A stretch of 64,000 bases of DNA. Origin: Escherichia phage vB_EcoM-pEB20. The notes under the pieces are model-generated. The model worked only from the letters and a program-made list of their open reading frames with translations, made no database searches and had not been told where the DNA came from. Positions 559 through 11,917 of this stretch are shown here, one piece after another. The stretch lies in sequence record OP114733, one strand, 5' to 3'. A program made the position numbers and the translations under genes. Position 1 is the first letter of the stretch, and every line of letters starts with the position of its first letter.

Positions 559-2376
559 ATGATTAAAAATGAAATTAAGGTATTGTCAGATGTAGAACAT
601 ATTAAGAAACGTAGTGGTATGTATATTGGTTCTTCGGCTAAAGAAGCCCACGAGCGTTTTTTGTTTGGTAAATATCAACAAGTTGAATATGTTCCTGGTC
701 TGGTTAAATTAATCGATGAGATTATTGACAACTCGGTTGATGAAGCTATTCGTACATCATTTAAGTTTGCAAATAAAATTGATGTGCAAATTAAAAATAA
801 TCAAGTTTCGGTGGAAGATAACGGACGTGGTATTCCTCAAGGTTTAGTTACTGACCAAACAGGTGAACAAATTCCTGGGCCTGTAGCAGCCTGGACTATT
901 CCAAAGGCCGGTGGTAACTTTGGTGATGACTCTGAACGCAAGACTGGTGGTATGAACGGCGTCGGGAGTAGTTTAACTAATATCTTCTCTACGTTGTTTA
1001 CAGGCATCACGTCAGATGGCGAAAACGAAATCACTGTTAACTGTTCAAACGGAATGGAAAACAAATCATGGTCTTCTAAGAAATCTAAAGGTAAAGGCAC
1101 TAAAGTAATCTTCACTCCTGATTTCTCTTCATTTGAAGAGCATAATTTATCTCAAATTTATTTAGATATTACTTTAGACAGACTTCAAACATTGGCAGTC
1201 GTTTATCCTGATATCAAGTTCACATTTAATGGTAAAAAGGTTGATGGTAATTTTAAACGATTTGCTAAACAATTTGGTGAAGATAACATCATTCAAGAAA
1301 ATGATAAAGTCTCTATAGCATTCACAACATCACCAGATGGCTTCCGTCATTTAACTTATGTGAATAACATCCATACTAAAAATGGTGGTCATCATGTTGA
1401 ATGTGTGATGGATGATATCTGCGAACATCTTTTGCCCGGTATTAAAAAGAAATATAAGGGTATTGAAGTCACTAAAGCTCGTGTTAAAGAATGCCTCACA
1501 ATGTTGATGTTTATTAGAGACATGAGCAACATGCGTTTTGATTCTCAGACTAAAGAACGTTTAACGTCAACGTATGGTGATATTCGTAATCATATCCAAT
1601 TAGATGCTAAGAAAATTGCTCAGGCGCTTCTTAAAAACGAAGCCTTGATTATGCCTATTGTTGAAGCAGCATTAGCTCGTAAATTGGCAGCAGAAAAGGC
1701 TGCAGAAACTAAAGCAGCTAAAAAGGCAACTAAAGCTAAGGTTCATAAGCATATTAAAGCTAACCAATGTGGTAAAGATGCAGATACGACATTGTTTTTA
1801 ACAGAAGGTGATTCGGCAATTGGTTATCTCATTGATGTTCGTGACCGTGAACTACACGGCGGATTCCCACTACGTGGTAAGGTGATGAATAGCTGGGGTA
1901 TGTCATATGCTGATATGATGAAGAACAAAGAGCTCTTCGATATCTGTGCTATCACAGGTCTTATTCTTGGTGAAAAGGCAGAGAATACGAACTATCGTAA
2001 TATTGCAATTATGACTGATGCAGATCACGACGGCCTTGGAAGTATTTATCCGGCTTTGCTTGCTTTCTTTAGTAATTGGCCTGAATTGTTTGAACAAGGA
2101 CGTATTCGCTTTGTTAAAACGCCTGTAATTATTGCACAAATTGGCAAAACTCAAAAATGGTTTTATACTGTAGCTGAGTATGAAGAAGTTAAAGATACAC
2201 TGCCTAAGCATAGTATTAGATACATCAAGGGATTAGGCTCCCTTGAAAAGTCAGAGTATCGTGAAATGATTCAGAACCCTGTGTACGACGTAGTTAAACT
2301 TCCTGAAAATTGGAAAGAACTCTTTGAAATGTTGTTGGGTGATGATTCAGAACTTCGTAAAGAATGGATGTCCTAA
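559..2376 (+). CDS. 39: DNA topoisomerase II large subunit (GyrB-like), uninterrupted 605-aa form
   Basis: GAGGAG RBS before ATG; Toprim EGDSA motif (LFLTEGDSAIGYL); position upstream of rIIA as in T-even phages. Confidence 0.9.
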   Translation: MIKNEIKVLSDVEHIKKRSGMYIGSSAKEAHERFLFGKYQQVEYVPGLVKLIDEIIDNSVDEAIRTSFKFANKIDVQIKNNQVSVEDNGRGIPQGLVTDQTGEQIPGPVAAWTIPKAGGNFGDDSERKTGGMNGVGSSLTNIFSTLFTGITSDGENEITVNCSNGMENKSWSSKKSKGKGTKVIFTPDFSSFEEHNLSQIYLDITLDRLQTLAVVYPDIKFTFNGKKVDGNFKRFAKQFGEDNIIQENDKVSIAFTTSPDGFRHLTYVNNIHTKNGGHHVECVMDDICEHLLPGIKKKYKGIEVTKARVKECLTMLMFIRDMSNMRFDSQTKERLTSTYGDIRNHIQLDAKKIAQALLKNEALIMPIVEAALARKLAAEKAAETKAAKKATKAKVHKHIKANQCGKDADTTLFLTEGDSAIGYLIDVRDRELHGGFPLRGKVMNSWGMSYADMMKNKELFDICAITGLILGEKAENTNYRNIAIMTDADHDGLGSIYPALLAFFSNWPELFEQGRIRFVKTPVIIAQIGKTQKWFYTVAEYEEVKDTLPKHSIRYIKGLGSLEKSEYREMIQNPVYDVVKLPENWKELFEMLLGDDSELRKEWMS

Positions 2377-2399
2377 GCTCCTTCGGGAGCTTCATTTTA
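2377..2399 (+). terminator. hairpin GCTCCTTCGGGAGC after gene 39 (weak T-tract)
   Basis: UUCG-loop hairpin; downstream TTCATTTTA is not a clean T-run. Confidence 0.4.
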
Positions 2400-2418
2400 A
2401 TTTTAATAAGGCTTAATT

Positions 2419-3519
2419 ATGAAAGTTATGTTTATCCCATCTCGCGCAGTCCCATTTAACCCAGAACGTGTACAAGGTGGTCTTGAAGCAGTACATTTAA
2501 ATGTGTTGAAATATCTTGTGTCCATCGGTGCTGATATTGATTATATCGGCTTTGATAATGACACGTTTGGTGACTGGAAGGTTAATCATCATCCTGTTGG
2601 TCATCTGACTAAATTCAGTCTAGGTATGAGTTATACTATGGCTCGTAAGATTGTTGAACTAGCCGGCATTAATGAGTACGATTTCGTTGTTACAATGGAA
2701 CCGACCAAACTAACCGTTCAGGCAATTAAAGACGCGGGTCTCTCTAAAGTTCATAAGAATTTTATGGCAACACCATTTGAACCGGTATCTCGTGGCATTG
2801 TTCAAATTTGGGACCAGACTATTCAAATTCATAAGAACGGTGGTAAGAGTTATGCTCCTACTAAAGCCTTCCGTGAATTTGAACGCAAATATTGTTATAT
2901 GACTTCAGGTCTGACTGACAAAATTGATTATGATTATTGGCGAGCAAATCCGTTGTTTGAAGCCGAAGATTATCCGGTTATTTGTTTGAATGATAAACCT
3001 GAAGTTCTTCCGGCGACTGATCTGATTATTAGTGCACAACGTTATGACACTAAAATGCGTCGTACTGATGTTGCTCTTGAAGCGATTAAAGCACTAGGCG
3101 AAAATGGTGTAGGATACTGTCCTAGTAAATGGGCACCACCGGCTAAGTATCCTGTTATTATTGATGCTCCACACAGTGAAATCATGGAACGTCTTAAAAC
3201 AGCTAAAGCACTTATCAATACGTGTCCTGACACGGGTACGGTAGAGAATAGTTCTATTGAAGCCATCTCTAAAGGTGTCCCTGTGATTCAGTTAGTTTTT
3301 AAGGATTATCCTCATGCGACATTCGAATACGACCCAGATACTATGCGTGTAGAAATTGATTCCTCTACTCCTAAGAAAGAAGTAGTTGCGCTTTACACAA
3401 AAGCTGTATTAGAATTCACTGACACATACGAAGCTCGAGTTAAACGTGCTGAAGCAGTATGGAAGAAGTATAACCGAGATGCAGTTGTTGGGATGTGGGA
3501 TAAAATCTTCACAGCGTAA
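2419..3519 (+). CDS. GT-B-like glycosyltransferase candidate (possible hmC-DNA sugar transferase)
   Basis: 366-aa ORF; MKVMFIPS N-terminus and C-terminal TVENSSIEAISKGVPVIQ resembling the nucleotide-sugar-binding motif of GT4-type enzymes; sits where T4 has gene 60/mobA; fold assignment is by eye. Confidence 0.5.
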   Translation: MKVMFIPSRAVPFNPERVQGGLEAVHLNVLKYLVSIGADIDYIGFDNDTFGDWKVNHHPVGHLTKFSLGMSYTMARKIVELAGINEYDFVVTMEPTKLTVQAIKDAGLSKVHKNFMATPFEPVSRGIVQIWDQTIQIHKNGGKSYAPTKAFREFERKYCYMTSGLTDKIDYDYWRANPLFEAEDYPVICLNDKPEVLPATDLIISAQRYDTKMRRTDVALEAIKALGENGVGYCPSKWAPPAKYPVIIDAPHSEIMERLKTAKALINTCPDTGTVENSSIEAISKGVPVIQLVFKDYPHATFEYDPDTMRVEIDSSTPKKEVVALYTKAVLEFTDTYEARVKRAEAVWKKYNRDAVVGMWDKIFTA

Positions 3520-3611
3520 ATCCTGAATCGCCTGAGGCACTATTACACATAAGATGATAGATTATATGGTCTTTAGTAATAGTGCCCTAGGAATCTACTG
3601 AAGAGAATATT

Positions 3612-3812
3612 ATGAGAACATATAACGTGGACTTGGAACTTTTTGATAAAGCAGTGCTCCGGGAATTCCGGCTTATCCAAAGATTTTTTGATATCGAGTC
3701 AGCAGAGTCCTTTAAAGAACGCTTTAAAGAAATTCGATATAAAATACAAACCGATACAGCTACTAAAGAAGAACTTCTTGAAGTAGCAGAAATTTTTAAA
3801 CGTAACTTGTGA
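3612..3812 (+). CDS. small protein at the rIIA.1 position
   Basis: 66-aa ORF ending 12 nt before rIIA start. Confidence 0.5.
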   Translation: MRTYNVDLELFDKAVLREFRLIQRFFDIESAESFKERFKEIRYKIQTDTATKEELLEVAEIFKRNL

Positions 3813-3824
3813 TGAGAGAAAAAT

Positions 3825-6038
3825 ATGATTATTGAAACGGCTAAAGAAACGATTATTGGTTCTGGTGGTAAAAGCACAGCATTTACTATTCAAGGCAATA
3901 GCAAAGTTTATAAGATTTTGTCTAATGACCTTTATACAAACAAAGAATTGGCTTGTGTACGTGAATTAATCACAAACTGTATCGATGGACAAATTCTTAA
4001 TGGTTGCACTGATAAGTTTATTGTTCAGGCACCAGGTCGTTTAGACCCACGTTTTGTAGTTCGAGACTTTGGTCCTGGTATGAGTGATTTCACCATTCGA
4101 GGTAATGATGAAGAGCCAGGAATCTATAACTCATATTTTGCTTCAACTAAAACATCGAGTAACGATTTCATTGGTGGATTCGGACTCGGTTCTAAAGCTC
4201 CACTAGCATATACCGATACGTTTAACCTTACGTCTTATCACAACGGTGAAGTTCGTGGTTACGTAATCTACCAAGATGACACAGGTCCACAGATTAAGCC
4301 AACCTTCGTAGATAAGATGGGTCCTGATGACCGGACCGGCGTTGAAGTAGTTGTGCCTGTTAACCCAGAGGATTTTGAAAAGTTCGCATCCGAAATTGCT
4401 TATGTTATGCGTCCTCTAGGTGATATTGCAGAAGTTCGTGGTGTTAAAGATATCAAATACTTCCCGGAATTCGATGATGTTTATTTAGCCAAGGAAGCTC
4501 CATGGGGTGAACGTGGTAATATCATGGCTGTTTATGGTGGTATTGTATATCCAATTGGAAGTGTTATTAAAGAACAAACATGGATGATGACGCGATGCAC
4601 TACAGCTTATATTAAATTCCCTATGGGTGAACTAGATGTAGCCCCGTCTCGTGAAGCATTATCATTTGATAAACGTACAGTAGCAAATATCCATAAACGT
4701 GTTGCAGAAATCGATGCTAAATTGTTCGCTGAAGATTCTAAGAAATGGATTGATTGTAAATACCCGCGTCATGTGTTCCGTGAAATTGATTCTCTTGGCT
4801 ATACCGCTCGTAAATACATGGAAAAGGCTGGGTCTAATATTGAATCACTGAAATATTCTAAAGAACAACTAACTTATTCTGAGTTGTACAAACGTTTTAA
4901 AATGGGACCTGAATGGTGTAATCTTGGCATCGTATACGATATCGTTGAATCCCCTCGTCTTCGTCGTATTCGTGAAAGCGGTAGCTCAACGGCAACCATT
5001 TCAATTAACAGTCTGATTGGCATTAACATTAAAAATGTTGAAATTGTTATTGACGACGTTAAGGGACGCGTTCCATTAATGCGAGCTCTTAATTCAATTG
5101 AAATGTCTAAAGACGAGGTTAAATTAACTGGTAAAGTTCCACGCGGTTTTGGTAAAAGTGTACTATTCGTTGACCCTACAGACGAAGATGCAATGAAACT
5201 TCTGGAACGCCTTAAAGTTATCTTTGATGGCGACAACATTAACATGTACAAGACTTCAGAGCTTTTACAAATCGTTAAGCCATGGATTGAAGTCAGGAAA
5301 CGGACTAATGAGCCTCGTCCTAAATCGCCAAGTGCTCATCGATTCTTTAAGAATGAAAATGACGTTTGGGTATCAGAAGACCTCTTTATTCCGGCAAGTG
5401 AAGCAGATGAAATCCAAGGTTATGCTATAGTTCGTAATCGTTCTAATGCTGAATGTCTTGACTCAGATAAAGGTTGGTTGAACTATGACTCCAATTTCTT
5501 GACCCGTATTGCTGATTTGTCAGGTATTAAAGAGTTCACTGTAGTTCGTCCACAGATTGCTAAGAAAGTTCGTAAACTTGGTGAAGTAGAATGCTTGTTC
5601 GAAAAATCAATTAACGACTATATTACGCTAATCGATAAAGTGGATTATGATGAGTATGTATCACCAAGTCGTAGAGCACAGCCTTATTTGAATCATATTA
5701 CTCGTAATGAAGAGCTTAACTTCCTTAGTAAGTATTTTAGCTCTAAGAACAAAGAAATCAGTAAAGACTTTGCAAAACTCTCAACAGTAAATAATCGTTG
5801 GGGATGGAATCGATTCGCAGGTGCTACTAATACAGACCTGAATAAGAAGTTAGAATTGTGTGCTAAAATTTTCGATAAGCTTAAAGATAATGCTTACGAT
5901 AATGATGATAAAATGGTTATTGAATTTGAAACCAATTATCATATTGTGTCAGAATACATGGGACGACGTGGTACTCTTTCCAAAGAACAGGTCGCTCAAA
6001 TCGTTAAATTCATGAAGGCCGTGGAAGCGGCCAAATAA
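3825..6038 (+). CDS. rIIA: rIIA membrane-associated protein
   Basis: 737-aa ORF; N-terminus MIIETAKETIIGSGGKS matches recalled T4 rIIA; followed directly by rIIB. Confidence 0.92.
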   Translation: MIIETAKETIIGSGGKSTAFTIQGNSKVYKILSNDLYTNKELACVRELITNCIDGQILNGCTDKFIVQAPGRLDPRFVVRDFGPGMSDFTIRGNDEEPGIYNSYFASTKTSSNDFIGGFGLGSKAPLAYTDTFNLTSYHNGEVRGYVIYQDDTGPQIKPTFVDKMGPDDRTGVEVVVPVNPEDFEKFASEIAYVMRPLGDIAEVRGVKDIKYFPEFDDVYLAKEAPWGERGNIMAVYGGIVYPIGSVIKEQTWMMTRCTTAYIKFPMGELDVAPSREALSFDKRTVANIHKRVAEIDAKLFAEDSKKWIDCKYPRHVFREIDSLGYTARKYMEKAGSNIESLKYSKEQLTYSELYKRFKMGPEWCNLGIVYDIVESPRLRRIRESGSSTATISINSLIGINIKNVEIVIDDVKGRVPLMRALNSIEMSKDEVKLTGKVPRGFGKSVLFVDPTDEDAMKLLERLKVIFDGDNINMYKTSELLQIVKPWIEVRKRTNEPRPKSPSAHRFFKNENDVWVSEDLFIPASEADEIQGYAIVRNRSNAECLDSDKGWLNYDSNFLTRIADLSGIKEFTVVRPQIAKKVRKLGEVECLFEKSINDYITLIDKVDYDEYVSPSRRAQPYLNHITRNEELNFLSKYFSSKNKEISKDFAKLSTVNNRWGWNRFAGATNTDLNKKLELCAKIFDKLKDNAYDNDDKMVIEFETNYHIVSEYMGRRGTLSKEQVAQIVKFMKAVEAAK

Positions 6039-6047
6039 GGAAACATT

Positions 6048-6983
6048 ATGTACAATATCAAATGCTTGTCCCAAGAAGAACAGTTAGAAGCTTACGATCT
6101 GGTTGAATCAGGCAAATGGACTCGTAAAGAAATTGCCGATTACTTCGACATTTCAACAGATACTCTTCGTAAGATTGTTAAGAATTTTAAAGCTGAAGAG
6201 AAAGCAGCTGAATTTGAAGACGAAGAACAAGTCCCAGAAAATAATGAACCTATTATTACCGGTCATCGCCCAGAAATCGTATGGAACGCGTCATCTAAAT
6301 TTATTTCAATCATTGAAGGACGCGTAGCATACAATGCGACCCCATCAAGTCATGCAAATTTTGAAGAAATTAAAGCTAATTTGGTCGCAGGAAACCTTAG
6401 TAAAGCTGTCGAACTTATTAACATCAAGAAAGCTATTACTAAGTTTGTTGACGGTAATGTTACTATTGAAGGTGGTAGTTTATTTTATCAAGGTATAGAA
6501 ATTCGTTCAGGACTGGTTAATCGTATTATTGATTCCATGGAAAAAGGCGAAGACTTTAAATTCTATCTGCCGTTCCTTGAAAACCTGTTAGAAAACCCAA
6601 GCGAAAAAGCTGTACAACGTTTATTCGACTTCTTGGTTGCAAACGATATTGAAATCACTGAAGACGGGCATTTCTATGCGTGGAAAGTAGTTCGTAAAGA
6701 CTATTTAGATTGCTATAGCGGCACATTTGATAACTCGCCTGGTAAAGTTGTTTCAATGCCTCGTACTCGTGTTAACGATGATGATACACAAACTTGTTCC
6801 CGTGGTCTACATGTTTGTGCTAAATCATATATTCGTTACTTTGGTTCTAGCTCAGATAAAGTTGTTAAGGTTAAAGTTCATCCACGTGATGTTGTATCCA
6901 TCCCGGTTGACTATGGCGATGCTAAGATGCGTACTTGTCGTTATGAAGTAATTTCAGACGTTACTGAATTATTTGTAGAATAA
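6048..6983 (+). CDS. rIIB: rIIB protein
   Basis: 311-aa ORF immediately after rIIA; followed by GGGGACTTCGGTCCCC-T5 terminator. Confidence 0.85.
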   Translation: MYNIKCLSQEEQLEAYDLVESGKWTRKEIADYFDISTDTLRKIVKNFKAEEKAAEFEDEEQVPENNEPIITGHRPEIVWNASSKFISIIEGRVAYNATPSSHANFEEIKANLVAGNLSKAVELINIKKAITKFVDGNVTIEGGSLFYQGIEIRSGLVNRIIDSMEKGEDFKFYLPFLENLLENPSEKAVQRLFDFLVANDIEITEDGHFYAWKVVRKDYLDCYSGTFDNSPGKVVSMPRTRVNDDDTQTCSRGLHVCAKSYIRYFGSSSDKVVKVKVHPRDVVSIPVDYGDAKMRTCRYEVISDVTELFVE

Positions 6984-6988
6984 TAATT

Positions 6989-7009
6989 GGGGACTTCGGT
7001 CCCCTTTTT
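6989..7009 (+). terminator. intrinsic terminator GGGGACTTCGGTCCCC + T5 after rIIB
   Basis: perfect 6-bp GC stem, UUCG loop, T-run. Confidence 0.8.
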
Positions 7010-7023
7010 CTTTAGGGGTAATT

Positions 7024-7311
7024 ATGATTCATCCATTTGACGTATCAGAATCCAAAATTGCTAATCTTCGTGGTCATCATAAGTGTAAATCAGTTTATTG
7101 TGTTAAATTGGTAAAACATCCTGGCGATGCACACTACGGCTGGTTAGAATGTGACGAAGTTGTTATTGAAATCCCACCGGTGGATGCAGAATATCTTGAA
7201 GAAGGTGACCGCATTTATTTTGGCGAACTACACATCAGAGGTATCTATGGTAAAGACGAACTTGGGACTGTTGAGGCTGAAGAGTCTTCCGACATTTATC
7301 CTGTCGAATGA
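7024..7311 (+). CDS. hypothetical protein (95 aa) between rIIB and denB
   Basis: ORF-track ORF; overlaps the preferred denB start by 65 nt. Confidence 0.45.
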   Translation: MIHPFDVSESKIANLRGHHKCKSVYCVKLVKHPGDAHYGWLECDEVVIEIPPVDAEYLEEGDRIYFGELHIRGIYGKDELGTVEAEESSDIYPVE

Positions 7312-7804
7312 GTTTTTGACTAGCGAAATGAAGGTTAAGATCGCTGATACTGCTCGGTACTCGTTGAAACAAGATCCAGGTCAAATAAAAGAAGACGTTG
7401 TTCGACGTTGTAAGGTCGCAGTCTTTGCAGAGTATGTAGTAGCAAATTGGCTAGACGGATATGTTAATAAAGGTAATGAAGACGTAGAAGACCCGTACAC
7501 GTATGCATGGGACGTTTTAGCTCATCCTAAGTACTGTGGTCTACGCGTAGAAGTAAAGACCCATCAGATGGATTCGAAATGGATTTCGGTTACCACAGGA
7601 TACGGTGGTGATTATCCGGGTGGTAATGGAATCAATATAGGGCCCTTCTTGAATCATCGAGTCGCAGATTGCATTATTATATTAGATGTCAAAGAAACCT
7701 CACCTGACGTCTTCTCTTATTCTATAAAGTTCGTGGGAGATCATGAAGACCTAAAGAAAATCGTCCGCAAGAGCAACTACAACGGGTGGTATCTTCATCT
7801 TTAA
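7247..7804 (+). CDS. denB: endonuclease IV (denB)
   Basis: Conserved core EMKVKIADTARYSLKQDPGQIKEDVVRRC...NYNGWYLHL matches recalled T4 EndoIV; start placed at ATG 7247 (AGAGG RBS 5 nt upstream) giving 185 aa, the T4 length; ORF track begins at 7151. Confidence 0.75.
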   Translation: MVKTNLGLLRLKSLPTFILSNEFLTSEMKVKIADTARYSLKQDPGQIKEDVVRRCKVAVFAEYVVANWLDGYVNKGNEDVEDPYTYAWDVLAHPKYCGLRVEVKTHQMDSKWISVTTGYGGDYPGGNGINIGPFLNHRVADCIIILDVKETSPDVFSYSIKFVGDHEDLKKIVRKSNYNGWYLHL

Positions 7805-7816
7805 TTTCATAAAAGT

Positions 7817-7846
7817 GTTTACAACTAAGTAGGACTATGATATAGT
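7817..7846 (+). promoter_or_regulatory. early sigma70-type promoter (GTTTAC-N18-TATAGT)
   Basis: T4 early promoter consensus; 7-bp inverted repeat AGGACTA/TAGTCCT (7831-7837 / 7846-7852) brackets the -10. Confidence 0.6.
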
Positions 7847-7872
7847 AGTCCTATCTAAAAGAGGATAACATC

Positions 7873-8136
7873 ATGAAATTTAAATTTTTCTACGCAAAAC
7901 ATAAAGTAACAGGCGAATTTGTTTCAATGTACAACACCGCAGATGACGAAGGGATGATTTATACCCATTTGGGACTATCTCATTGGGACTCAGACGTGCC
8001 TTATATGTCATCTGAAGCCGAAATAACTCGTTTAGTTAATGGACATATGAACGACCATTTTGGTGTTATTCTTTCTAAAGACCTTAAAGAGGTTATCAAC
8101 AAAGGATATATGGAACTCGCGGAAGTTGAGATATGA
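7873..8136 (+). CDS. hypothetical protein (87 aa)
   Basis: ORF with AGAGGA RBS, preceded by early promoter at 7817-7846. Confidence 0.55.
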   Translation: MKFKFFYAKHKVTGEFVSMYNTADDEGMIYTHLGLSHWDSDVPYMSSEAEITRLVNGHMNDHFGVILSKDLKEVINKGYMELAEVEI

Positions 8137-8219
8137 GCTCTAAAATGTGGATAGGAATATGGTTGCTTAGTATCCCAATGATTTGTATAATATTTTCAAT
8201 TGTGTTGAGGTACTTATGA
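8133..8219 (+). CDS. small hydrophobic peptide (28 aa)
   Basis: ATGA overlap with upstream stop; MSSKMWIGIWLLSIPMICIIFSIVLRYL is a single predicted TM helix; below ORF-track size cutoff. Confidence 0.3.
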   Translation: MSSKMWIGIWLLSIPMICIIFSIVLRYL

Positions 8220-8326
8220 AAAATGCACTTCTTATTGTACTAAGAACAATTTGTGATACGGGTTTTTACATTGCATGTTCGTTCACTGGAACATGGTTGG
8301 CTTTAACATATTTTAATGTAATTTAA
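8216..8326 (+). CDS. small hydrophobic peptide (36 aa)
   Basis: ATGA overlap with previous small ORF; hydrophobic sequence MKNALLIVLRTICDTGFYIACSFTGTWLALTYFNVI. Confidence 0.3.
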   Translation: MKNALLIVLRTICDTGFYIACSFTGTWLALTYFNVI

Positions 8327-8328
8327 TT

Positions 8329-8358
8329 GTTTACATCACGGTAGGATTATGGTATAGT
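8329..8358 (+). promoter_or_regulatory. early promoter (GTTTAC-N18-TATAGT)
   Basis: consensus match; inverted repeat GTAGGA/TCCTAC flanks the -10. Confidence 0.6.
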
Positions 8359-8386
8359 AGTCCTACTGAAACATGAGGAACACAAA

Positions 8387-8587
8387 ATGGCTAAGCTTTT
8401 TAAAGATGTTGAAATTGGTGAAAAATTTGTTCTGAATAATGGTCAGCAGCTTATTCGTGTAGCTTCTATAGCCGGACAAACTCATAACTGTATCGCCCCA
8501 ACGTGTTGGACTCGATTCTTTATTGAAGATGACACTGAATGTTTAACTGTTGAAGAGCTTTTTGAACGTTCTGATATGGCCGAATAA
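8387..8587 (+). CDS. hypothetical protein (66 aa)
   Basis: ORF with GAGGAA RBS; preceded by early promoter 8329-8358. Confidence 0.5.
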   Translation: MAKLFKDVEIGEKFVLNNGQQLIRVASIAGQTHNCIAPTCWTRFFIEDDTECLTVEELFERSDMAE

Positions 8588-9453: not shown

Positions 9454-10779
9454 ATGCAATTGAATTCTCGTAATCTAAAAAGTATTATTGATAACGAAGC
9501 CTTAGCATATGCGATGTACACCGTTGAAAACCGTGCAATCCCAAACATGATTGATGGATTTAAGCCGGTTCAACGTTTTGTGGTCCATCGTGCGTTAGAT
9601 TTGGCTCGTGGTAATAAAGAAAAATTTCATAAACTTGCGTCAATTGCAGGCGGTGTTGCAGATTTAGGTTATCACCATGGTGAATCTTCTGCACAAGATG
9701 CAGGTGCATTGATGGCTAACACATGGAACAACAACTATCCACTGTTAGATGGCCAAGGCAACTTTGGTTCTAGAACAGTCCAAAAAGCTGCAGCATCTCG
9801 TTATATTTTTGCTCGTGTAAGTAAAAATTTCTATAACGTATATAAAGATACTGAATATGCTCCAGCTCATGAAGATAAAGAACACGTTCCGCCAAAATTC
9901 TATCTTCCTATTATTCCGACAGTTCTTTTGAATGGCGTCTCTGGTATTGCAACCGGTTACGCAACAAATATTCTGCCTCATAGTTTTAAATCAGTCAAAA
10001 AGGCTGTATTACAAGCTCTTCAAGGTAAAAATGTCACTAAGCCAAAAGTTGAATTCCCAGAATTCCGTGGTGAAGTACATGAAGTTGATGGGCGTTATGA
10101 GATTCACGGAACATATAAGTTCACATCTCGCACTCAAATGCAGATAACTGAAATCCCATATAAATTCGACCGTGAAACGTATGTGAGTAAGGTTCTTGAC
10201 CCGTTGGAAGACAAAGGTCTAATCTCATGGGAAGATGATTGCGGTGAACACGGCTTTGGGTTTAAGGTGAAGTTCCGTAAAGAGTACTCGCTTCCTGATG
10301 ATGAAGAGCTACGTCATGAAAAAATCATGAAAGATTTTAGTCTCATCGAACGTCGTTCACAAAACATCACAGTGATTAATGAAACGGGTAAATTAGCGGT
10401 CTATGATAACGTAGTGGACTTAATCAAAGATTTTGTTGAAGTCCGTAAGACTTACGTTCAGAAACGTATTGACAACAAAATCCTTGAATCTGAAAAAGCA
10501 TTTAAACTGGCTTTTGCTAAGGCACACTTCATCAAAAAAGTTATCAACGGTGAAATTGTGATTCAGGGCAAGACTCGTAAAGCTTTGACTGAAGAGCTAG
10601 CACAAATCGAAATGTATAAAGAACATGTCGATAAACTGGTAGGTCTTAACATCTTCCATATCACTTCCGACGAAGCACGTAAACTAGCAGAAGAAGCTAA
10701 AGCTAAGAAAGAAGAAAATGAGTATTGGAAGTCTACTGATGTTGTGACAGAGTACACTAAAGACTTGGAGGCACTTTGA
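9454..10779 (+). CDS. 52: DNA topoisomerase II medium subunit (GyrA-like)
   Basis: 441-aa ORF; N-terminal region MQLNSRNLKSIIDNEALAYAMYTVENRAIPNMIDGFKPVQR matches recalled T4 gp52. Confidence 0.9.
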   Translation: MQLNSRNLKSIIDNEALAYAMYTVENRAIPNMIDGFKPVQRFVVHRALDLARGNKEKFHKLASIAGGVADLGYHHGESSAQDAGALMANTWNNNYPLLDGQGNFGSRTVQKAAASRYIFARVSKNFYNVYKDTEYAPAHEDKEHVPPKFYLPIIPTVLLNGVSGIATGYATNILPHSFKSVKKAVLQALQGKNVTKPKVEFPEFRGEVHEVDGRYEIHGTYKFTSRTQMQITEIPYKFDRETYVSKVLDPLEDKGLISWEDDCGEHGFGFKVKFRKEYSLPDDEELRHEKIMKDFSLIERRSQNITVINETGKLAVYDNVVDLIKDFVEVRKTYVQKRIDNKILESEKAFKLAFAKAHFIKKVINGEIVIQGKTRKALTEELAQIEMYKEHVDKLVGLNIFHITSDEARKLAEEAKAKKEENEYWKSTDVVTEYTKDLEAL

Positions 10780-10970: not shown

Positions 10971-11180
10971 AAAATGAAATTAACCCAAAACACAACTACT
11001 CGTTTCGGTAAAGTTAAACCTGGTATGAATGCTCCCCGTAAAGCACTTGTTGAAGAATTAAATTTCTTAGAAGTTGAAATCAATTCTTTAGTGGTTCGCG
11101 GTTCAAATGGTCATCATTTAGAAAAGCTTCGTTCTAAAAAGGCAAAACTTATTGGCCTTATTAAAGAAATGAGTTTGTAA
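10965..11180 (+). CDS. hypothetical basic protein (71 aa), stand-alone module
   Basis: ORF with its own promoter/leader (10897-10964) that duplicates the motA promoter/leader; GGAGAAATAAA-ATG RBS. Confidence 0.55.
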   Translation: MSKMKLTQNTTTRFGKVKPGMNAPRKALVEELNFLEVEINSLVVRGSNGHHLEKLRSKKAKLIGLIKEMSL

Positions 11181-11218
11181 ATTTTACCAGGGCTTTTGGA
11201 AAAAGAGCCCAAAATAAA

Positions 11219-11247
11219 GTTTACTTTTGCTTCAAACATGATATTAT
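11219..11247 (+). promoter_or_regulatory. early/middle promoter of motA (GTTTAC-N17-TATTAT with TGCTTCA box)
   Basis: consensus match; duplicate of 10897-10925. Confidence 0.6.
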
Positions 11248-11290
11248 AGACCTATCAAAACAAATACTAATTTGGAGAAATAAAATGTCT
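11219..11290 (+). repeat. promoter/leader cassette, copy 2 of 2 (motA)
   Basis: see 10897-10970. Confidence 0.8.
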
Positions 11291-11917
11291 AAAGTTACTT
11301 ACATCATCAAAGCTTCCGAAAACGTTCTGAATGAAAAAACTGCTGCAATAATGGTTTATATCATTAAGAACAACTTCACCACTGCTGCCAATGTCCGTGA
11401 AGCTCTGGAAGCAGAATACAATGCATCGGTTGTTAACTCTAACATTGGTGTATTGATTAAGAAAGGTTTAGTCGAAAAATCCGGTGATGGACTTGTAGCA
11501 ACAGGTGAAGCAATGGATATTATCCAAAAAGCTGCAGACCTCTTTGCCCAAGAAAATGCTCCAGAACTTCTTCAGAAACGTAACACCAGAAAAGCACGTG
11601 GAGTTACTCCTGAAATGCATGAATTAGCAAACTTTGTTTTTGAAAATATTAAAGATAAAGTTGAAGTTAAAGAAATTGGTGAAAACCGTAGTAACTTAGA
11701 AGTTCGATTTGCAAAACGAGTTCTAGGTATTCGTCAGATCGAAATTCGTCGAGATGGTTCTCTTAGAATCTTTGCATACAACATGTCAGAAACTGAATCA
11801 AAGCTGTTTACTTCTCTTGAAAATGATGTTAAGATTAAGATCGGTGGTAAATATACTTATATTGACTTCCCTAATGTGTCCAAAGAAATCATTACCCTTG
11901 TAACTAACGTACTGTGA
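11285..11917 (+). CDS. motA: middle-transcription activator MotA
   Basis: 210-aa ORF; MSKVTYIIKAS...NSNIGVLIKKGLVEKSGDGL matches recalled T4 MotA. Confidence 0.9.
   Translation: MSKVTYIIKASENVLNEKTAAIMVYIIKNNFTTAANVREALEAEYNASVVNSNIGVLIKKGLVEKSGDGLVATGEAMDIIQKAADLFAQENAPELLQKRNTRKARGVTPEMHELANFVFENIKDKVEVKEIGENRSNLEVRFAKRVLGIRQIEIRRDGSLRIFAYNMSETESKLFTSLENDVKIKIGGKYTYIDFPNVSKEIITLVTNVL

Follow-up and report, generated by a model that had tools for sequence, protein, structure and literature searches.

The gene at positions 2419–3519 of the stretch analyzed here (the window: 64,000 nucleotides of Escherichia phage vB_EcoM-pEB20, sequence record OP114733) very probably encodes a soluble GT-B DNA glycosyltransferase that adds the second, beta-(1->3)-linked D-arabinofuranose (Araf) from UDP-arabinofuranose, a role and a linkage that we infer. 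The gene is already known: judged by its sequence it is the gene of phages RB69 (ORF003c) and HY126 in another isolate, and it was proposed as a glycosyltransferase gene in 2018, crystallized as protein by 2025 and placed in a revised, published pathway in 2025–2026. The features of the locus are given below by their positions in the window.

559..2376, plus strand: topoisomerase II large-subunit gene, 605 aa, uninterrupted, corresponding to T4 genes 39 and 60 fused
2375..2392, plus strand: hairpin AAGCTCC-TTCG-GGAGCTT (7 bp) with a T-rich run behind it, terminator-like or RNA-stabilizing stem-loop
2407..2411, plus strand: Shine-Dalgarno sequence TAAGG, read directly from the sequence, 7 nt 5' of the transferase ATG
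2419..3519, plus strand: glycosyltransferase CDS, 366 aa, ATG-to-stop ORF, ortholog of RB69 ORF003c/gp3 and of the phage HY126 glycosyltransferase
2476..2481, plus strand: codons of G20-G21, glycine loop following strand beta1, nearly invariant in family alignments
3040..3060, plus strand: codons of R208...R214 (QRYDTKMR), start of the C-terminal Rossmann domain, invariant alignment columns
3244..3288, plus strand: codons of E276-NSSI-E281-AISK-G286-VPVI, shortened E-x4-E variant of the GT4 E-x7-E nucleotide-sugar motif
3531..3591, no strand: inverted repeat with 16-nt arms, 88% complementary, and a 29-nt spacer, in the gap between the transferase gene and rIIA.1
3612..3812, plus strand: rIIA.1 homolog, 66 aa, 71% identical to T4 rIIA.1 from end to end, PHROG 1683
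3825..6038: rIIA, downstream of rIIA.1 and followed by rIIB

The transferase ORF is a real gene under purifying selection and no chance ORF. It is intact, and the 366-aa product, its MKVMFIPS N-terminus and the E-x-x-x-x-E...G-PVI segment are all present as the initial annotation had described them. The protein matches PHROG 8302 from positions 1 to 366 of 366 in a profile search (E 1e-221), the DNA recurs at 90–99% identity in 163 phage records, and the protein is found at full length and 94–99% amino acid identity in about 155 records of Mosigvirus-type phages (tblastn), with dN/dS values of 0.08–0.12 relative to RB69 and AV109. A recent horizontal acquisition of the gene was considered and rejected, since its GC3 is the same as that of its neighbors and its codon usage agrees with theirs (cosine 0.96), despite a GC content of 40.1% vs. 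37–38% in the flanks. A promoter scan gave no excess of sigma-70-like sites over shuffled sequence.

The product is a GT-B (GT4-like) glycosyltransferase according to its structure model, which has a pLDDT of 91.9 and shows a pair of Rossmann-like domains flanking a cleft. Searching the PDB by sequence retrieved two entries, 9IQZ and 9IR0, about 98% identical over all 366 residues (released on 2025-07-16 under the titles “phage HY126 glycosyltransferase” and, for 9IR0, the same “with UDP”), and the model superposes on both at a TM score of 0.96–0.97. These entries likely stem from the HY126 study of He et al. 2026 (Nat Chem Biol). The structural matches that follow them are GT4-like GT-B enzymes including PimA, BshA, and WaaG. 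A first model, built from a 6-sequence alignment, reached a pLDDT of only 59, and the prediction became good once the representatives from an exhaustive search were added. Binding of UDP by the window protein itself is putative and is suggested by the title of the 9IR0 entry for the 98%-identical protein.

Profile searches, by contrast with the structure, do not recognize the fold: no Pfam family, Glycos_transf_1 and Glyco_transf_4 included, matches the protein at E<=10, no NCBIfam family matches it, and a sequence-profile search of the PDB returned nothing beyond 9IQZ/9IR0 except noise. The GT-B assignment made in the initial annotation is thus confirmed by structure and a solved homolog, crystallized with UDP (9IR0), and not by profile search; the Pfam test that had been suggested as a check would, taken on its own, have wrongly dismissed the glycosyltransferase. 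The family is small, with five clusters (90% identity) among 5.8 billion proteins, two of them named by a source and both of these from phages. Among 1.84 billion proteins it has 12 representatives, of which two are borderline and carry ordinary GT4 Pfam domains; the Glycos_transf_1/Glyco_transf_4 models are matched only by a borderline relative at 18% identity (P0015).

In the family alignment, G20, R208, R214, E281, and G286 vary little or not at all, distant GT4-annotated relatives included, with R208 and R214 invariant throughout that range and E281 and G286 invariant in the family alignments, and all family-invariant motif residues are present in the window protein. G20 was aligned with G15 of T4 a-gt, a beta-phosphate contact, and the counterpart of E281 in that enzyme is E311, a ribose contact (Thomas et al. 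2018; PMC6024577). R208 and R214 are predicted to bind the diphosphate, a role suggested by the analogy to GT4 enzymes and by the alignment that the same authors published. In P0015 the canonical first Glu of the nucleotide-sugar motif aligns with T272, while E281 and G286-x-P288 are conserved.

The protein encoded at the equivalent locus of RB69 (ORF003c/gp3, NP_861693), between 60plus39 and rIIA.1, is 98.1% identical to that of the window, bearing out the equivalence drawn in the initial annotation. The two differ by seven conservative substitutions (E16D, N85H, D192E, V231A, M309V, T327I, and G358A), none of them at a family-invariant position.

The gene order of the window is 39(+60 fused)-GT-rIIA.1-rIIA, with the same order and spacing in RB69, vs. 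39-mobA-60.1-60-rIIA.1-rIIA in T4. Residues 1–474 of the upstream gene match T4 gp39 1–473 at 79% identity and residues 473–605 match T4 gp60 27–159 at 86% identity (BLASTP), and the fused gene is named 60plus39 in the RB69 record. Gene 39 is uninterrupted, as the initial annotation had it. The accompanying claim that the transferase gene replaces the gene 60/mobA region holds only in that the T4 mobA/60.1 insertion is absent from the locus; the gene 60 sequence has been kept, fused into gene 39. The transferase gene lies between the gene 60 sequence and rIIA.1, which in T4 are 54 nt apart, and is separated from rIIA.1 by a gap of 92 nt that contains the inverted repeat. The locus is plastic, harboring mobA and 60.1 in T4 and a homing endonuclease in AV109, where the latter separates the topoisomerase and transferase genes. 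The hairpin at 2375..2392 directly follows the topoisomerase stop codon, between gene 39 and the transferase gene, and is the sole terminator-like site in the interval 2000–4200, a count no higher than that of shuffled sequence (mean 1.4). It is annotated as a terminator in several related records.

The chemistry in which such an enzyme would take part has been revised in recent years. Arabinose in RB69 DNA was described by Thomas et al. 2018 (PMC6024577), who, relying solely on HMM and HHpred, suggested that ORF003c was the arabinosyl-hmC transferase. Lee et al. 2026 (PMC13326640) identified the RB69 base by MS/MS and NMR as beta-D-Araf-(1->3)-alpha-D-Araf, O-linked to cytosine C5. The modified base of RB69-type phages is hence given, in that study and in the Durham-collection paper (PMC13390438), as an arabinosylated 5-hydroxycytosine (5hoC) without the hydroxymethyl bridge and not as hmC; in the words of the latter paper, RB69 “was erroneously identified” as a phage with hmC. 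The initial annotation was accordingly right to expect a sugar or linkage unlike that of T4, the sugar of this phage group being arabinose and not glucose, and wrong in naming hmC as the base, which is 5-hydroxycytosine with a C5 ether-linked arabinofuranose in the same two sources. Mosigvirus NP has mono- and di-arabinosyl cytosine in a ratio of 1:4 (PMC13390438).

RB69 gp48, a “gene 42-like” thymidylate-synthase homolog, makes 5-hydroxy-dCMP (PMC13326640), and the RB69 “gene 42” homolog is described as a flavin-dependent 5-hydroxy-dCMP synthase (PMC13326640 and PMC13390438). The former paper further reports that a sequencing error had divided RB69 gp46:47, in fact a single gene, in two; its product is put forward as the transferase that acts first, and gp3 (ORF003c) is named “beta-arabinosyltransferase 2.” The transferases assayed there were those of DLP3 only, and the role of RB69 gp3 is explicitly a proposal. 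In those assays, gp76 and gp77 of DLP3, acting jointly in vitro, extended RB69 DNA by a third arabinose taken from UDP-Araf, and single DLP3 transferases, each alone, showed no activity on plain 5hoC DNA.

DLP3 gp77 and gp76 (beta-arabinosyltransferases 2/3) are 42.3% and 40.0% identical to the window protein from end to end and share its motifs. They are tandem paralogs inside the arabinosylation cluster of a phage whose DNA carries three arabinoses, whereas Mosigvirus DNA carries two, and the window-type gene there has no second copy and lies about 21 kb outside the cluster. One observation runs counter to a second-step role: gp76 and gp77 are active only as a pair, yet Mosigvirus has a single copy.

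The distribution of the two transferase types among phages bears on the step catalyzed. Members of the window-protein family were found by tblastn in 211 phage records, with one copy in each Mosigvirus-type phage and two places in each of 55 Acinetobacter phages (about 42% identity to the window protein), and none in phages of Shewanella, Serratia, Klebsiella, Enterobacter, Proteus, and Edwardsiella; proteins of the DLP3 gp77 and gp76 type are the sole relatives outside Mosigvirus detectable by tblastn and BLASTP. The gp46:47-type transferase, searched for with the uninterrupted 298-codon ORF of phage ATK47 as tblastn query, occurs in 348 phage records from more than 10 host genera, including Thanatos-1, and, among the matches listed, almost all annotated records place its gene beside or overlapping that of the thymidylate-synthase homolog. 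About 137 records, mono-pentosylated Thanatos included, have the gp46:47-type transferase without the window family, which is thus accessory, the gp46:47 type being present in every arabinosylating phage found. Copies of the window family number 0, 1, and 2 in phages with 1 (Thanatos), 2 (RB69, NP), and 3 (DLP3) reported arabinoses. This series, together with the universal gp46:47-type enzyme, indicates that the window gene most likely encodes the second, sugar-on-sugar arabinosyltransferase.

The phyletic pattern agrees with the pathway in PMC13326640, with gp46:47 as the proposed first transferase and gp3 as the second, and the view of ORF003c as “the” arabinosyl-hmC transferase, repeated in the initial annotation, is superseded. 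That the window enzyme is nevertheless the primary transferase attaching the first arabinose to the modified cytosine, as put forward for RB69 ORF003c in 2018, appears unlikely. HMM and HHpred searches then ranked ORF003c first among the RB69 glycosyltransferase candidates (PMC6024577), gp46:47, divided by a sequencing error, was overlooked, and a GT-B fold with UDP binding is compatible with either step; however, a family missing from those 137 or so records is not a universal first step, its copy number follows the count of extra arabinoses, and the homologs gp76 and gp77, inactive singly on 5hoC DNA, extend arabinosylated DNA when paired (PMC13326640). In addition, the window-type gene is about 21 kb from the ThyA homolog and the hydroxylase/sugar-activation cluster in both RB69 and ATK47, whereas gp46:47 is embedded there.

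A second alternative, very unlikely in our judgment, is that the acceptor is not phage DNA but, for example, a protein or part of the host envelope, or that the donor is not UDP-arabinofuranose. Its structural neighbors PimA, BshA, and WaaG do act on lipids, small molecules, and LPS, and some GenBank orthologs are labeled [quoted passage not shown] but the 98%-identical protein was crystallized with UDP and not GDP, and the homologs gp76 and gp77 use UDP-Araf on DNA (PMC13326640). Moreover, the family is confined to phages equipped with the 5hoC/UDP-Araf pathway, both Acinetobacter phage copies lie inside the arabinosylation cluster, and the family has few representatives, its two source-named clusters both coming from phages. 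It is scarcely credible that the gene is a decaying or dispensable, inactive remnant, as the plasticity of the locus and the silence of Pfam and NCBIfam might suggest, given a full-length ORF in about 155 genomes, the low dN/dS, a codon usage like that of the neighbors, the complete set of invariant motif residues, and a protein soluble and ordered enough to give crystals (9IQZ).

For the preferred reading, in which the window gene encodes the second arabinosyltransferase, the first steps are those published for phages of this group. The thymidylate-synthase homolog converts dCMP to 5-hydroxy-dCMP, which takes the place of C in DNA, and a phage pathway leads from ribulose-5-phosphate to UDP-D-arabinofuranose. 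The proposed first transferase (RB69 gp46:47 type), encoded beside the hydroxylase, places an alpha-D-Araf onto the C5 oxygen. The window enzyme, holding UDP-Araf in its C-terminal domain (the diphosphate by R208/R214, the ribose by E281), would transfer a beta-(1->3)-D-Araf onto O3 of the first arabinose, already in DNA, giving the di-arabinosylated cytosine that predominates in Mosigvirus DNA. With the bulkier glycan, the access of nucleases, glycosylases, and CRISPR systems to the DNA changes.

The stereochemistry of the two steps raises a further point. The second Araf is beta-linked and the first alpha-linked (PMC13326640); if both transferases use one UDP-D-Araf donor, as is presumed, one of the two must invert. 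The closest structural neighbors of the window model are retaining enzymes; the RB69 gp46:47-type transferase also has a GT4-like GT-B fold and resembles retaining GT4 enzymes (Table 1 of PMC13326640). If the inverting one were the window enzyme, which we consider possible but doubtful, it would be an inverting, DNA-glycan-extending enzyme with a shortened E-x4-E motif on an otherwise retaining scaffold.

The known enzymes to which the window protein can be compared differ from it in sequence, acceptor, or sugar. The transferase of the RB69 gp46:47/DLP3 gp79 type (the proposed first, alpha-arabinosyltransferase) belongs to the same pathway, with a UDP-Araf donor that is presumed common, but has about 298 aa and the base as acceptor, vs. 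a sugar for the window-type enzyme, and neither BLASTP nor hhalign revealed a sequence relation between the two. T4 a-gt (GT72) and b-gt (GT63) gave nothing below E=5 by BLASTP and probabilities of 0.5% and 0.2%, respectively, in hhalign, which upholds the distinction from them drawn in the initial annotation; the hhalign targets (a-gt, b-gt, and the first arabinosyltransferase) were single sequences, hence of low sensitivity. Retaining enzymes of CAZy family GT4 (PimA, MshA, BshA, WaaG, and sucrose-phosphate synthase) are 10–15% identical and have E-x7-E where the window protein has E-x4-E, and the acceptor of the window-type enzyme, by inference a sugar on DNA, is unlike theirs. The beta-1,6-glucosyl-alpha-glucose transferase of T2/T6 would be a functional analog. 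It makes gentiobiosyl-hmC and is thus a second transferase extending a cytosine-bound sugar in DNA, with a disaccharide that alters restriction sensitivity; its substrate is glucose on hmC, vs. arabinofuranose and 5hoC for the window-type enzyme. Arabinosyltransferases named Aat were reportedly described by Mahler et al. in 2025 (Cell Host Microbe). A Bas46 aat deletion is cited from that study in PMC13216743.

The remainder of the pathway has to be sought in relatives. None of RB69 ORF045–055, T4 a-gt, b-gt, and gene 42 is encoded within the 64-kb window, where the initial annotation would have had the last three looked for in the rest of the genome; the window runs from gene 39 towards rIIB, away from the cluster region, which accounts for the absence of the arabinosylation cluster. 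The nearest relative, ATK47 (locus 99.1% identical; gp39 identical over the 458 available residues), has the whole RB69 ORF045–055 cluster, its proteins 92–100% identical; the cluster is flanked by DNA polymerase and uvsX, where T4 has b-gt, and the RB69-type gene 42-like enzyme of ATK47 is 99% identical. No b-gt homolog was found in the 32 kb of ATK47 examined, and in RB69 gene 47 is directly followed by a-gt.2, the a-gt gene being absent there. The cluster occurs at an identity of at least 95% in about 154 records, and the window gene in about 155. By analogy with these relatives, vB_EcoM-pEB20 itself probably carries genes for a 5-hydroxy-dCMP synthase, the enzymes of the UDP-arabinose pathway, and a first transferase.

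The gene would signal a phage group with di-arabinosylated 5-hydroxycytosine DNA rather than T4-type glucosyl-hmC. From what is reported for related phages, the predicted consequences include resistance to numerous type II restriction enzymes (PMC13326640), protection against the Brig1 glycosylase and type I CRISPR-Cas (as summarized in PMC13216743), only very mild restriction by CMoRE (PMC12923530), persisting sensitivity to the GmrSD-family protein BrxU (PMC13390438), and strongly degraded nanopore read quality and mapping (PMC12838424). Such knowledge may be of use in the choice of phages for therapy and in annotation, its main practical value lying in the correction of database labels: among the matches listed, nearly all are called “hypothetical protein” and a few mannosyltransferase or “DNA alpha-glucosyltransferase.”

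The folds nearest to the product of the transferase gene (window 2419..3519) are those of retaining enzymes and, according to PMC13326640, the first arabinosyltransferase (RB69 gp46:47) resembles the GT4-type enzymes MshA and sucrose-phosphate synthase. The same paper reports that the two arabinoses differ in linkage, one being alpha and the other beta; if both arabinosyltransferases use a shared donor, one of the two must therefore be inverting, despite the retaining or GT4-like resemblance of both.

The first arabinosyltransferase is encoded by a single uninterrupted 298-codon ORF in phage ATK47 and is split in two ORFs in RB69 (ORF046c/047c), as is the RB69 bifunctional kinase/UDP-sugar pyrophosphorylase (ORF052c/053c). 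In the ATK47 RefSeq record both the transferase (11019..11915) and the kinase/pyrophosphorylase (about 6732..8414) are left without annotation. A match with 47.5% identity to the Mosigvirus first arabinosyltransferase occurs in Shewanella phage Thanatos-1 (MT457552.1, 55465-56355), and this ORF is probably the 300-aa TH1_063. The assignments for this gene are in conflict: TH1_063 has been reported as a UDP-xylose pyrophosphorylase (PMC12838424), whereas PMC13326640 takes the gene syntenic to it as the arabinosyltransferase.

Escherichia phage AV109 carries an annotated homing endonuclease gene (661..1458) between the topoisomerase large-subunit and transferase genes, an insertion which shows that mobile endonucleases target this junction in Mosigvirus, just as they do the 39/60 region of T4. 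In Shigella phage JK45 (NC_054940.1, 2523-4123) the transferase match is split in two pieces that extend over 1.6 kb, compared with 1.1 kb, and fall under two features both labelled 'hypothetical protein', which suggests a partial duplication or insertion in the JK45 copy of the gene. On the other side of the transferase gene, the spacer preceding rIIA.1 contains the following element:

3531-3546 / 3576-3591, inverted repeat between the transferase gene and rIIA.1 (16-nt arms, 88% complementary, 29-nt spacer)

The corresponding T4 spacer has instead a GTTTAC...TATAAT early-promoter-like sequence.

Two other genes of the window were also considered:

7151..7804, + strand, DenB-like endonuclease IV gene (homology from residue 33)
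9454..10779, + strand, 441-aa ORF with a full-length match to the PHROG 'DNA topoisomerase II' family

As mechanically called, the ORF of the former has a GTG start codon and shares part of its length with the ORF before it (7024..7311); since homology begins only at residue 33, the true start probably lies further downstream. The latter, about 7 kb from gene 39, probably encodes a gene 52-type topoisomerase subunit and is ordinary T4-like gene content, of value only as a landmark.
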